From a bacterium (GTDB taxonomy: Bacteria > Auribacterota > UBA3054): a stretch of 64,000 bases of DNA. The position numbers and the translations under genes are program-made. Below the pieces are notes generated by a model. It made no database searches, had not been told where the DNA came from, and was given only the letters and a program-made list of their open reading frames with translations. Below, one piece after another: positions 5,560 through 10,268 of this stretch (positions are counted from its first letter, which is position 1; the number at the start of each line of letters is the position of its first letter). The stretch covers positions 66,843 through 130,842 of the forward strand of contig JAFYXV010000008.1 of NCBI GenBank assembly GCA_017557885.1. The letters are read 5' to 3'.

Positions 5560-5715
5560 CCAATCGCTTCCGCGGCGTCAGCTCCGGCGCGATCAGGCCT
5601 TCTGTGCGGGTCGCTTCAGCCGGCGCACGATCGGCAGGCGTCCTTGCCAGCCCTTCGCGTTCAGCCAGGCTAAAATTCCTTCCGCAGTGTTTGAACAACG
5701 CCGCCCAAAGGAGAT

Positions 5716-5746
5716 AAAAAAAAGAGACCCGCTTTCGCGGGTCTCT
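5716..5746 (-). terminator. Rho-independent terminator for the 5771..6412 gene
   Basis: AGAGACCCGC-tttc-GCGGGTCTCT hairpin; on the minus strand it is followed by T8. Confidence 0.65.
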
Positions 5747-5770
5747 TCCACAAGAATGCTAATTAGCTTC

Positions 5771-6412
5771 TTATTCGGTCACAGGGTTGACCACGTTCAC
5801 GTTCTTGGCGGTGTAAACCAGGCCAGGAGCAACAACGATGGTGCCGCCAGCCTGTTTGGCCTTGAAGGCGACCTTCTTGGGGGTCGTGATGCCAGTGCCT
5901 TCGACTTCGCCGAACTGACCAGCCTGGATGCTCTTGAAGACGCCTTTGAAGGTGCCTTCGACCTTCGTGGTGGCCTTGACGGCCGTGCCCTTGGCGAAGT
6001 TACCAGCATCGACGCTGCCGGTGATGTTGGCGACCTGAGCGGACTTCAAGCCAGCGGCGACGACGGTGCCGACGGTGATGCCTTTCAGCTTAAGAGCGAC
6101 GCCGTTGAAGCCAGCTTCCACGCCGTTGATCGTGCCGGTGACTTTGCCGCCTTTCTGGGCGATGGCTTTACCAGCAGCAGCCTTGACAACGATGTTGCCG
6201 TTGGCGGTGGTGAACTGGACCTGGCCTTTGTCACCCAGCTGGGTGCCGAAGTCAACGATGGTGGCGCCGGTTTCATCGACGGTGACGACCGGGGTCACTT
6301 CGGGCTTGGAGAAGCCTTCCAGACCTTCGCAGAAGACCTGCGGGGTCTTGGCAGCGTAAGCGATAGCAGCGATGACGAGTAAAGAAGCAACGATGATTTT
6401 AGTAGCTTTCAT
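5771..6412 (-). CDS. Small secreted Gly/Thr/Val/Lys/Ala-rich repetitive protein of unknown function
   Basis: Start chosen at internal ATG (MKATKIIVASLLVIAAIAYA signal peptide) preceded by GGAGA; the longest ORF to 6601 adds an implausible non-hydrophobic N-terminus; mature part is degenerate short repeats (KGTAVKATTKVEGTFKG, KGGKVTGTINGVEAG, LKLKGITVGTVVAAG). Confidence 0.6.
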   Translation of the reverse strand: MKATKIIVASLLVIAAIAYAAKTPQVFCEGLEGFSKPEVTPVVTVDETGATIVDFGTQLGDKGQVQFTTANGNIVVKAAAGKAIAQKGGKVTGTINGVEAGFNGVALKLKGITVGTVVAAGLKSAQVANITGSVDAGNFAKGTAVKATTKVEGTFKGVFKSIQAGQFGEVEGTGITTPKKVAFKAKQAGGTIVVAPGLVYTAKNVNVVNPVTE

Positions 6413-6434
6413 TTTATGTCTCCATAAATGTGGT

Positions 6435-6465
6435 ATTTTAAACAATGTCTCCCAAACGGAATCAA
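6435..6465 (-). promoter_or_regulatory. Putative sigma70-like promoter of the small secreted repetitive gene
   Basis: Minus-strand TTGATT - 18/19 nt - TAAAAT about 25 nt upstream of the RBS/ATG. Confidence 0.3.
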
Positions 6466-6698
6466 CAAAATTGTGACTCCCCTCCGGTGGGACGTTTCCT
6501 CGCCCGAAACTTTTCGGACTAAAAATAAAGGCTCGTTTCCCTGTATCGAAGGCCTTAACGCTCGAAGCTGTTATCCGGCCTTTCCCTCTACATTGTTTCA
6601 ATTATCGTAAGGAATTATAACAGAATGCCTGCCGGAAATCAAGTCCTTCTCCGGCCGGCGGGCTGGCGTTCCTGCAAAAACCGCTGCTTTCAGCCGTT

Positions 6699-9600
6699 TT
6701 ACATAACCTCGTTCAGCTCGTTCTCCCGAACGTGCTGGCGTTCCTTCTCCTCCAGGAGCAGCGCCGCCCCGTCCTTTTTCCGGCGTATCGCCCAGTTCAG
6801 GGGATCGCGTTTCCAATTTTCGGAATATTCTCCGTCTATCCTGCGGAAAGAAACGTCCGTGAACTCCACCGCTCCGGGGGAGGCGACGTTCTCGCTTTCC
6901 AGGCAGAAGAAAGAAATATTTTCTGAGCTGTTGGTTATGATCAGGTGCTCCTGGGTCCATTGGCCGCAGAGAGTCCGCCATTTCTTCACTTGGGAATCCG
7001 TATCGCCTCTTTGCCTGAACCGCATGGAAACTTCCGTGGGCGCTTCCCTGCCCTCCGGGATCCTGGCGTAGGCGGAGGCGGCGTAAACGCCGGGCGGCAG
7101 CATCATCCTGACCGAGGCGCCGGCCTTGCCGCCGGGTTCGCCCTGCTCGGAGAGTTTGAAGCCGGGTGTCAAAAGGAAGGTGGCGGGAAGCTTCTCTTCC
7201 TTTTCGGATTCCGCCCGCCATTCTCCCAGCCCTTTGATGAAGTAGCCGTTCATCAGCTGCTCGGCTCCCTCGAAAACTATAACGGCATGCCTGGGCAAAG
7301 AGTTGGTTATGATGCCGCCCATTTCCTTTTGTGCGCTTTCGGAAGCGGGCAGGTCGCCCCTGGCGTCCATCGATTTCTTAAAGGTATCCCACTCTTTGAC
7401 GAAGATCGCGTTTTCCGGACGATTGAGATAGATCTTGTCGAAGGTCTCGGTAAAAGCGCGGAAGTTCTCGTCCGCGAAACCGTAATTCGCTTTGAATTGG
7501 CTTGGGGCTATGAAGGGGATCAGGCCGCCGGCTTTGTAATAGACGTCGAAGAGGAGCCAGGGATCCGGCGTTTCGTTCTTGAGCATTTCAAAATAAGCCC
7601 TGGCCCCCTGGCGGTTTCCGGTCTTGACGCAGAAGAAAAACCGGCCTATGCAGTTGCGGCTTTTTTTCAGTTCGTCTTCCGAAGCGCCTTCCAATCCTTT
7701 TACGATCCATTTGCGATAGGCTTTCCGGATGCTTATTACCGAATAGTCGTCCTGGGAGAGAGGCGGCAGATAAAGCAGCTGCGGGCTTATTTCATAGAGG
7801 GCATCCTCGCTCCAGGCGGAGCGCACGCATTCCGCCAGAGCCAGCGTCATGGCCGCCAGCTGCTGGGGGGAGTGGACTTTCTCCACGGATCTCAAAAGCG
7901 CCGTGGTGTCGTTGACAGCCATGACCGAGCAAATGTCGCTTATGGAGTTGAAATCCGGCCTGCCTATGGTGGAAATGAACCACCAGGCGTAGCCTGTCTC
8001 GCCCAGGAATCTCTCGTCGGCGGAAAGGTAATCGTTGTTTTCCAAAAACACCCATTTGCGGGAAAGTTTCCTTCTCTGCTCATAGCGCAGCACGTCGTAG
8101 AGAGAGGACAATCCCAGGCTTCCCTCTTCGCTTTTTCCCATGCCGGGAAGAACTATGAAGTCTCCCGAACGGAACCCGTTCTCCTGGCTGTCCAGGACCT
8201 GGCAGACTTTTTCCATGACGTCCGAAAGATCGCTGCCCTCCAGCTCGTAGGAGGAACGCCTGTAGCCGAAGAGGAAGGCGACCAAGGGCAGCACGATGAG
8301 CATCGCCGCCAGCGGGCGCAGGCGCGGATTGCCCAGGAAGCGGCTGAGAAGTCTGGCGCAGAGCGTCGCGAAACGGCCGATGAGGATCCCTCCCTGCCCT
8401 ATCGCCGCGGCCAGGAAGACCGTGGAAGCATAGCCTGCGGTCCCGGGATTCAGCTCGCTGACCCGCAGGTAGAAATAGAATAAAACGGTGCTGAGGATGC
8501 CGTAGAGCCCGCAGCGTTTAAGGTCCGTCAGCCACATTAGGAGAATGCCCAGAACGACCGACAGGCCGCAGAGAAATTCCGTGTTGTTGAGCCAGTGGGT
8601 AACCAGGAAAGGATTGGGCGAGGAGGCGATCCAGAAGTTTCCGTTGACTTCAAATTTGGTCGGGTCAAGAGTGCCGCAGAAGAAATAGATCGACGCGATG
8701 GGCAGCAAAAGCGGCAGAAGCCTTGAAACAACAAGGACGGCGAAACTCGCGAAGCTCTTCTGCCTGGCGTTCCAAATTATTCCTATGATCTGCGTCAAAA
8801 AGATCAGGATAAGGCACAGGAACGCAAAGGACGGCATGGCCCCCGGGAAGCCCGCCAGAAGGGAGATCAGAAGGCAGCGGAAAAGATAATACTTGTAGCC
8901 GCTCTGGTAGCTCTTCAGCGAGGCGCAGTAAGAGGTCAGTATCAAAAGCAGCAAAGTCATCTGCAGAACGAAAAGCCCGCCATCCAGCTGGAGTATATTT
9001 CTCCCGGCCAGGAAGAAGACAAGGCCAATGGTCACCGCGGTGGAGGCGGTCAGGATGCCGACCAATCCCTGGATCAGCGCCAAAACGATCAGGCAGCAGG
9101 CGGAGACCACAAGGGACATAAGGGAGTACTGGGCCGGCGTCACCAGAAGCGCGTAGTTCAGCTTCGCGCAGATCCTGGCGTAGGCTATCTGAAGCGTGGT
9201 GAAAGCGGCGCCGCTGCGGTCCGCGGCTTCGCTCATAAAGACGTCACGGATATTCTCAAACATGTGGGCCTGACGGAACACATGCCCCTGGTCCATGGAG
9301 AAATTGCGGTAAACGTCCTGGGAAACTCTCCAAAGGCAAAAGACTGCCGCCGCTATCACCAGCGCGCCGATCAGCTTCGCGCCGATCTTTACGTAGAGGT
9401 CGTTGCCGCCTCTTAAAAAGCCCTGGCTGAAAACGCCGCGGCTTTCGCTCTTCCTGGGCAGCGAAGAAACGTAGGCGTCCTCCCGGTCGTTGTAGTAAGC
9501 GTCGCCTTCGTTTTTCTTTTGGAAAACGGAGGCAGCCCAATCGGCAAGATCCATTATCCTGAAAAAGGCGAGGAAGGCAAAAAACTTGTCGGAAAGCGAA

Positions 9601-10268
9601 AAGCGCGCGCCCTCTGCCTCCTCTTCCTCCTGGGAGGAGAAAAGGAAAGCGTAAAGGGAGGCGAACCTGTCCTGGCAGTAATCCCGGGTCATCATGAGGA
9701 TCGTGTGGAAAGGACGCGCTTCGTTGTCCTGGACTTCCGAAGAAGCCTCTTCCCCGCCGTTCTCCGCAGCCGCGGCCTCTGTTTCGTCTTCAGCTTTCTT
9801 TTCCGTGCCTTTGAAAACGTACTTCTTGCCCAGAACGTAATTCAAAATTATAACTATGGGCTGGGTGATGTATTTGGCCGCCACGCCTGGCTGGAGCACG
9901 ATAAAGGAGAAACTGCAGCCGCCCAGGACAAAAGCCAGCTGGAGATCCTGAGGCAGAAGGACCGACAGAAGTTTCGTCAGGGCGACGTCCACCACCCCGG
10001 AAAGCCCCCTGACCAAAGCGAAGCGCCAGATCTCCATGCCCAGCTCCTTGTTGTCCTTGCAGTGGGAAGCGAAGACCCAAAGCTTGTTGGAAACGTAGGC
10101 GAAGATCTTGGCGCAAACGACGGAGATGACGCCGGAAGTGGTGACGCCCACCCCCATCCGGTACAGGATGTGGTAAACGCCAACGTTGACCACGGTGGTC
10201 AGGACGCCGCAGATCAGATAAGCTATGATCTCTTTGAGGTTCTTTTTCTTTTTTTGCGCGCCAGCCAT
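6699..10268 (-). CDS. Large polytopic membrane protein with N-terminal GtrA-like domain fused to a multi-TM domain and a C-terminal soluble domain (putative polyprenyl-phosphate-sugar-dependent glycosyltransferase or polysaccharide biosynthesis protein)
   Basis: 1189 aa; N-terminus MAGAQKKKKNLKEIIAYLICGVLTTVVNVGVYHILYRMG...AKIFAYVSNKLWVF matches the GtrA family pattern; then acidic linker, more than 12 predicted TM helices and a roughly 450-aa hydrophilic C-terminal region. Confidence 0.65.
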   Translation of the reverse strand: MAGAQKKKKNLKEIIAYLICGVLTTVVNVGVYHILYRMGVGVTTSGVISVVCAKIFAYVSNKLWVFASHCKDNKELGMEIWRFALVRGLSGVVDVALTKLLSVLLPQDLQLAFVLGGCSFSFIVLQPGVAAKYITQPIVIILNYVLGKKYVFKGTEKKAEDETEAAAAENGGEEASSEVQDNEARPFHTILMMTRDYCQDRFASLYAFLFSSQEEEEAEGARFSLSDKFFAFLAFFRIMDLADWAASVFQKKNEGDAYYNDREDAYVSSLPRKSESRGVFSQGFLRGGNDLYVKIGAKLIGALVIAAAVFCLWRVSQDVYRNFSMDQGHVFRQAHMFENIRDVFMSEAADRSGAAFTTLQIAYARICAKLNYALLVTPAQYSLMSLVVSACCLIVLALIQGLVGILTASTAVTIGLVFFLAGRNILQLDGGLFVLQMTLLLLILTSYCASLKSYQSGYKYYLFRCLLISLLAGFPGAMPSFAFLCLILIFLTQIIGIIWNARQKSFASFAVLVVSRLLPLLLPIASIYFFCGTLDPTKFEVNGNFWIASSPNPFLVTHWLNNTEFLCGLSVVLGILLMWLTDLKRCGLYGILSTVLFYFYLRVSELNPGTAGYASTVFLAAAIGQGGILIGRFATLCARLLSRFLGNPRLRPLAAMLIVLPLVAFLFGYRRSSYELEGSDLSDVMEKVCQVLDSQENGFRSGDFIVLPGMGKSEEGSLGLSSLYDVLRYEQRRKLSRKWVFLENNDYLSADERFLGETGYAWWFISTIGRPDFNSISDICSVMAVNDTTALLRSVEKVHSPQQLAAMTLALAECVRSAWSEDALYEISPQLLYLPPLSQDDYSVISIRKAYRKWIVKGLEGASEDELKKSRNCIGRFFFCVKTGNRQGARAYFEMLKNETPDPWLLFDVYYKAGGLIPFIAPSQFKANYGFADENFRAFTETFDKIYLNRPENAIFVKEWDTFKKSMDARGDLPASESAQKEMGGIITNSLPRHAVIVFEGAEQLMNGYFIKGLGEWRAESEKEEKLPATFLLTPGFKLSEQGEPGGKAGASVRMMLPPGVYAASAYARIPEGREAPTEVSMRFRQRGDTDSQVKKWRTLCGQWTQEHLIITNSSENISFFCLESENVASPGAVEFTDVSFRRIDGEYSENWKRDPLNWAIRRKKDGAALLLEEKERQHVRENELNEVM

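Follow-up and report, generated by a model that had tools for sequence, protein, structure and literature searches.

The window, by which we mean the whole 64,000-nucleotide stretch of DNA analysed here, carries on its minus strand (6642..5710) what its sequence signals mark as a self-contained, monocistronic, high-output expression cassette for a small exported protein. Comparison with orthologous loci indicates that homologous recombination has replaced the part of this gene encoding the mature protein, among members of one species as well as across rumen species that live together, and that the flanks of the exchanged segment (leader, codons of the signal peptide and terminator) have stayed nearly constant. 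The best explanation, in which we place moderate confidence, is that the cassette serves the production of an abundant, exposed and swappable β-helix protein of the cell envelope. The protein family is unannotated, and its leader matches no Rfam family.

Expression signals and a structured 5′ leader

The features of the cassette and of its upstream neighbour are as follows.

6614..6642, minus: sigma-70-type promoter (consensus scan, 10/12)
6642..6637, minus: −35 element TTGATT, with a 17-nt spacer to the −10 element
6619..6614, minus: −10 element TATAAT, TG-extended
6413..6607, minus: structured 5′ leader of approximately 195 nt, with the conserved block starting from 6599
6544..6584, minus: family-specific leader hairpin supported by covariation
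6419..6423, minus: ribosome-binding site (RBS) GGAGA, 6 nt upstream of the ATG and invariant in nine loci
6412..5771, minus: open reading frame (ORF) of 213 aa
6353..6412, minus: signal peptide, aa 1–20, MKATKIIVASLLVIAAIAYA, with predicted cleavage after A-Y-A and before AK
5774..6352, minus: mature protein, aa 21–213, 19.2 kDa, pI 9.5
5771..5773, minus: stop codon TAA
5710..5749, minus: intrinsic terminator with the 13-bp stem GGAAGAGACCCGCGAAAGCGGGTCTCTTTT and a T run (stem and T run by scan, 5749..5720)
10268..6699, minus: GtrA-fusion gene of 1189 aa (PF04138, E = 7e-18), given for context only

The sequence-only reading had pointed to strong expression signals here, and these are borne out: the candidate promoter and strong terminator are present and conserved among orthologues, and the GGAGA RBS is confirmed at 6423..6419. 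A TTGAC(A)-17-TGnTAnAAT pattern is conserved at nine orthologous loci in intergenic DNA that is otherwise unalignable, and near-perfect TTGACA-17-TATAAT or TATACT promoters precede distant family members (L013, L017, L018, L100 and L140); transcription of the window gene is predicted to start near 6607. At the other end, the 3′ edge of the conserved cassette at 5717 is the edge of the blastn block in all loci. Strong terminators also lie 3′ of distant members, and each family member examined is flanked by a promoter and a terminator of its own. Codon usage mirrors that of GAPDH, which shows the strongest codon bias of all genes in the window, and places the gene second of 44; the gene is apparently expressed very strongly.

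The leader folds into a long-range helix of AAACAAUG with CAUUGUUU that encloses four hairpins, and the RBS is located in a hairpin loop. Its minimum free energy of −58.7 kcal/mol corresponds to z = −3.18, and none of 200 shuffled sequences folded as well. Mean pairwise nucleotide identity is 93.6% in the leader, compared with 82.6% in the mature coding part and 80–86% in housekeeping neighbours; the changes seen within the close clade include 1–2-nt indels and compensatory changes at three pairs. A longer in-frame ORF of 276 aa, starting from a TTG at 6601, was rejected as non-coding because the part upstream of the 213-aa frame shows these 1–2-nt indels and RNA-type compensatory base-pair changes among orthologues. 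Two further candidates within the leader were also set aside: a small upstream ORF, which has 12 codons in L007 but is reduced to ATG-TAG in the window and is therefore not conserved, and CsrA-type control through the duplicated GGAGACAU, a duplication that only the close clade shows and that distant leaders lack.

One hairpin of the leader extends well beyond the close clade. Its layout (GAAAG, a 7-bp stem, a 2-nt internal loop, 4 bp, a bulged A, 3 bp and a triloop, closing with CUUCRAUA) precedes family genes of six lineages (the window clade, L013, L017, L018, L100 and L140), and it recurs even where the encoded members are only 33–41% identical in protein sequence. The share of paired cells over the 14 pairs of the hairpin is 95.9%, compared with 24–48% in slid controls, and six of the 14 have changed on both sides. 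A covariance model of the hairpin scored 48–64 bits on family instances and at most 26 bits on approximately 80 decoys that match the primary-sequence pattern. The hairpin occurs once within the window, where none is expected by chance, and it co-occurs strictly with this one protein family across lineages that differ greatly in GC content. In a metagenome-wide scan for the leader motif, the matches listed were mostly chance occurrences inside coding regions, and the real ones among them were L029, L100 and L103. Rfam returned nothing at the gathering threshold in the window except tRNAs, and only chance-level hits (E at least 0.9) for the leader region 6350..6720.

The hairpin may control mRNA stability or translation. 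In E. coli, the 5′ UTR of ompA is a stabilising or regulatory leader of the mRNA for an abundant envelope protein. Like that leader and that of Lactobacillus slpA (PMC3666127), the present one is a long, structured and conserved 5′ UTR ahead of an exported protein, here with the Shine–Dalgarno sequence in a loop; it differs from them in having no Rfam match and in the placement of its hairpin, which in several lineages lies not at the extreme 5′ end but 13–50 nt from the predicted one, and is thus an ill fit to a classical 5′-terminal stabiliser.

The encoded protein and its family

The N-terminus of the 213-aa product comprises two lysines, a 15-residue hydrophobic core and an A-x-A site, and the signal peptide that had been proposed from the letters of the window holds across the family: the n, h and c regions together with an A-x-A or V-x-A motif are kept in all members. 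Mean column entropy is 0.35 in the signal peptide, compared with 0.53–1.15 in segments of the mature part, and its codons share 94.1% nucleotide identity among orthologues; in the AF2 model residues 2–18 form a detached helix of low pLDDT. The pattern is that of a Sec-type signal peptide, presumably cleaved by signal peptidase I.

Valine, alanine, glycine, threonine and lysine make up 64% of the protein (threonine alone 11%), and arginine, histidine and tryptophan are absent. The mature protein opens with the motif F-x-(P/E)-G-L-E-G-F-x-K, followed by a predicted β-helix. The earlier proposal of a β-solenoid or fibrous surface protein built from degenerate short repeats survives in its structural half: the AlphaFold model (pLDDT 90.8) is a generic right-handed β-helix of approximately seven coils. 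The repeats themselves are insignificant at the sequence level; the sole Tandem Repeats Finder match is 1.9 copies of 21 nt, and the best internal self-match of the protein, with a score of 35, was equalled by 114 of 300 composition-preserving shuffles. Repetition in this protein is, on the model, structural only, consisting of about seven β-helix coils of 18–25 residues each. No paralogues of the gene were found within the window.

The family comprises 31 close homologues, with 13 representatives among 1.84 billion proteins. Neither the window protein nor any family member matched Pfam, NCBIfam or PHROGs; even at E ≤ 1, Pfam yielded nothing in 14 family members. Sequence and profile searches of the PDB with the window protein gave no match, and Foldseek against the PDB returned nothing significant (E at least 0.03). 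A search for bactofilin-like or adhesin-like homology, suggested in the sequence-only reading, favoured neither: there is no match to PF04519 and the signal peptide is conserved, and a sequence relationship to β-helix adhesins is undetectable, the likeness being one of generic fold only. This fold is common to secreted right-handed β-helices such as the TPS domains of TpsA proteins (HpmA, HxuA and FHA), region IV of MpAFP, tapirins and the DUF4097 or ‘putative adhesin’ proteins of Bacteroidales (PDB 3ljy, 3pet and 3jx8). Unlike the TpsA domains, the window protein lacks NPNL/NPNGI motifs, the Pfam haemagglutination-activity domain and a nearby TpsB; it differs from these secreted β-helices more generally in showing no detectable sequence relationship to them and in lacking Ca2+-binding or T-x-N ladders, and it is a complete protein at approximately 190 residues rather than a domain of a giant one. 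Relatives of the cassette were not found in viral contigs, and a phage origin was accordingly rejected.

Conservation within the mature protein is concentrated in its lysines. In the close clade 16 of 20 mature lysines are invariant, and lysine has the lowest entropy of all residue types; family-wide, 18 positions are conserved, of which 11 are lysines (five invariant and six near-invariant), and many of the conserved lysines sit at Lys-Gly corners of the predicted coils. Threonine is among the least conserved types, with the third-highest column entropy; 2 of 23 threonines are invariant in the close clade and one family-wide.

Exchange of alleles between genomes

In all of the close-clade loci retrieved, the gene lies at one and the same chromosomal site, and the alleles found there do not follow the relationships of the surrounding genes. 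Between L007 and L001, which belong to one species, Rho and RuvB are 100% identical, the Rce1-like protease 98% and the GtrA fusion 94%, compared with only 65% for the window gene's product; dS is 0.78 in this gene and 0.07–0.23 in its flanks. The divergent L001 allele is found at the same position in three independent assemblies. The reverse pattern holds between L004 and L005, which represent different species (Rho 86%, GtrA fusion 57%; flank dS 0.68–1.3): here the alleles are 100% identical (dS 0.013), a value that merging of near-identical alleles by the assembler could have raised, as the two loci are contigs of one sample. The window allele is 98% identical to that of L007 (dS 0.116) where the flanks are 51–81% identical (dS 0.65–2.3) and RuvB 96%; compared with the closest genome, L010, it is only 85% identical, with Rho at 93% and Rce1 at 95%.

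Breakpoints fall just past the signal peptide and at the terminator. RuvB shows mild incongruence as well, so that recombination is common in this group and is not unique to the window gene. Exchange of this kind would be expected of a major exposed envelope protein, and would not be expected if the protein were a substrate of its neighbour.

Readings of the protein's role

The sequence signals and population genetics together suggest that the protein may be one of the most abundant exported proteins of the cell and may form a coat, fibril or adhesin layer that is exposed at the envelope. Its conserved lysines could bind it non-covalently to LPS or capsule, as anionic polymers of the envelope, or could drive its self-assembly, and phages, predators or host antibody would exert frequency-dependent pressure on its variable surface; such pressure would maintain divergent alleles and reward their swapping. 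The source bacterium lives in the rumen, and its Rho has best named matches that are 55% identical and spread over several phyla. SurA-like chaperones, LpxI in syntenic loci and a PEP-CTERM protein are outer-membrane markers that identify the host as diderm. A Sec signal alone would deliver the protein to the periplasm only, and crossing of the outer membrane would require a further route.

The cassette resembles S-layer genes (Lactobacillus slpA-type genes and C. difficile slpA) in being monocistronic and in encoding an exported protein, very highly expressed in the case of S-layers and predicted to be so here from sequence signals. S-layer genes pair strong promoters with long, stabilising 5′ UTRs, and their codon usage is biased (PMC3666127); the window cassette similarly combines a strong promoter, a long structured 5′ UTR, biased codons and a strong terminator. 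The proteins, too, are alike in being basic, with pI values of 9.4–10.4 for Lactobacillus S-layer proteins (PMC3666127) and 9.5 for the mature protein here, and conservation of the signal peptide and the ends around a variable, in this case presumably exposed, part is a further likeness. In C. difficile, slpA cassette types act as phage receptors (PMC10100898), and the title of PMC3549603, as cited there, speaks of recombinational switching of these cassettes. Two points count against an exposed envelope role: the mature size of 19 kDa is below known S-layer sizes (subunits of 40–200 kDa, or 25–71 kDa in lactobacilli; PMC3666127), which lie at 25–200 kDa overall, and a recognisable anchoring domain is absent, with no SLH, CWB2 or other Pfam or NCBIfam anchoring domain in any family member. 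The predicted β-helix and the diderm host also set the system apart from these S-layer proteins, as does a leader hairpin whose conservation extends to members with as little as 33% protein identity. We know of no description of such a family-wide hairpin for S-layer genes. The best reading is that the system is S-layer-like in its gene organisation and population genetics, and that the protein is too small, and of too different a fold, to count as an S-layer protein.

A more far-reaching form of this view, which we offer tentatively and regard as possible rather than probable, is that the locus represents an undescribed envelope-coat system: a mini β-helix anchored by a lysine ladder, serving as an interchangeable antigenic cassette among co-resident rumen species, with a new family-specific cis-regulatory hairpin acting, for example, in feedback between export or assembly and translation.

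It is unlikely that the protein is instead a structural component of the periplasm, a β-helix that forms polymers or uses its lysines to link the outer membrane to peptidoglycan, as a bactofilin-like protein or an analogue of Braun's lipoprotein. A Sec signal is present and no route of export across the outer membrane was identified, the lysines are invariant, the expression signals are of the high-output kind, and the small helix of about seven coils, rich in G, V, A, T and K, recalls the bactofilins (PF04519/DUF583), which have approximately six windings and polymerise. Bactofilins are cytoplasmic, however, and have no signal peptide, whereas the present family has a conserved one and no Pfam match, and they were absent among the fold hits. 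There is also no lipobox, and the C-terminal residue is not a conserved lysine. Dimorphism within a species and exchange across species would, moreover, be unexpected for a protein shielded within the periplasm.

The neighbouring gene suggests another role, proposed in the sequence-only reading, in which the protein would be a surface or S-layer-like substrate for O-glycosylation; on this view GtrA would flip a polyprenyl-phosphate sugar, and a fused GT-C-like domain would transfer it to threonines in the periplasm. The adjacency on which this was built is real: the gene lies just downstream of the GtrA fusion, at a spacing of 286 nt, and every close-clade locus has the two side by side on one strand. 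The whole neighbourhood, which includes the Rce1-like protease and the PEP-CTERM protein, is syntenic in these genomes, however, and the adjacency is therefore not independent evidence. It is lost in distant members: that of L013 lies between HU and QueD/FolE and that of L017 beside an aldehyde dehydrogenase, neither with an adjoining GtrA gene, and that of L140 likewise has no linkage to a GtrA fusion. This loss leaves the O-glycosylation idea unsupported. The threonine content would suit it, as would the Pro/Thr/Glu-rich C-terminal tails of some alleles (e.g., P0023, P0025 and P0030), but the threonines are the poorly conserved residues described above, the window allele lacks a Pro/Thr-rich tail, and a D-S/T-[AILVMT] sequon is absent.

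The fusion protein itself has an N-terminal GtrA domain, an acidic linker, approximately 12 more TM helices and a C-terminal helical and β-sandwich region. This topology of about 12 TM helices with a large soluble C-terminal region is compatible with GT-C enzymes but proves nothing; a GtrA-YfhO (GT-C) fusion is known in the database (P0073), and a title cited in PMC10100898 ties a glycosylation gene cluster to S-layer switching in C. difficile. The neighbour nevertheless matches no glycosyltransferase family at E ≤ 1, GtrA (PF04138) being its sole Pfam match; its profile search against the PDB was empty, and its AF2 model (pLDDT 52.6, with the membrane part below 50) is too poor for a fold search. 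Both genes evolve rapidly, the fusion showing 50% amino acid identity between species whose Rho proteins are 80% identical, but a separate promoter and terminator bound the window gene, and it undergoes recombination separately from the GtrA fusion. We consider it quite unlikely that the protein is O-glycosylated by its neighbour; the exposed, S-layer-like half of that proposal does fit the swapping of alleles.

A secreted protein acting on carbohydrates, either a binding module like tapirins or Cthe_2159 or a small PL3-like pectate lyase with a lysine-lined groove for anionic plant-wall polymers such as pectin, appears very unlikely. The basic pI, the conserved lysines, the rumen habitat and a GH18 chitinase near the L140 member are in keeping with such a function, but structural matches to these proteins are no better than those to unrelated β-helices, and there is no match to a PL or CBM family. 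PL3 and pectate-lyase-like enzymes differ further in that the window protein has no arginine and no acidic cluster of Ca2+ ligands; the close clade keeps a single invariant acidic residue, D54, and the family as a whole keeps none, such that no Ca2+-binding or catalytic cluster is evident. The locus lies outside any polysaccharide-utilisation cluster, and a promoter of housekeeping-type strength, a dedicated RNA leader and allele swapping would be unusual for an accessory protein of glycan degradation. That the protein is a bacteriocin-like secreted toxin whose allelic diversity reflects an arms race among strains is extremely improbable: its small size, basic pI and secretion, and the horizontal exchange of its divergent alleles, would suit such a toxin, but no immunity gene adjoins it, the gene is monocistronic everywhere and lies at one chromosomal site in all close-clade loci retrieved, its codon usage is GAPDH-like and its consensus promoter of constitutive type, and the PHROGs search gave nothing.

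The result thus corrects an appealing but unsupported inference from gene adjacency, and it favours an abundant, exposed and exchangeable envelope protein in a rumen lineage that has no cultured relatives and whose Rho is at most 55% identical to that of any named taxon. The leader hairpin is a candidate for a new cis-regulatory RNA that co-evolves with one protein family across very different GC contents, and the 19-kDa β-helix with its strong native cassette could serve as a protease-tolerant display scaffold. If the protein is indeed strongly expressed and swapped, it would provide a handle for matching phages to hosts, for antibody or lectin capture in cultivation, and for typing strains in rumen metagenomes.

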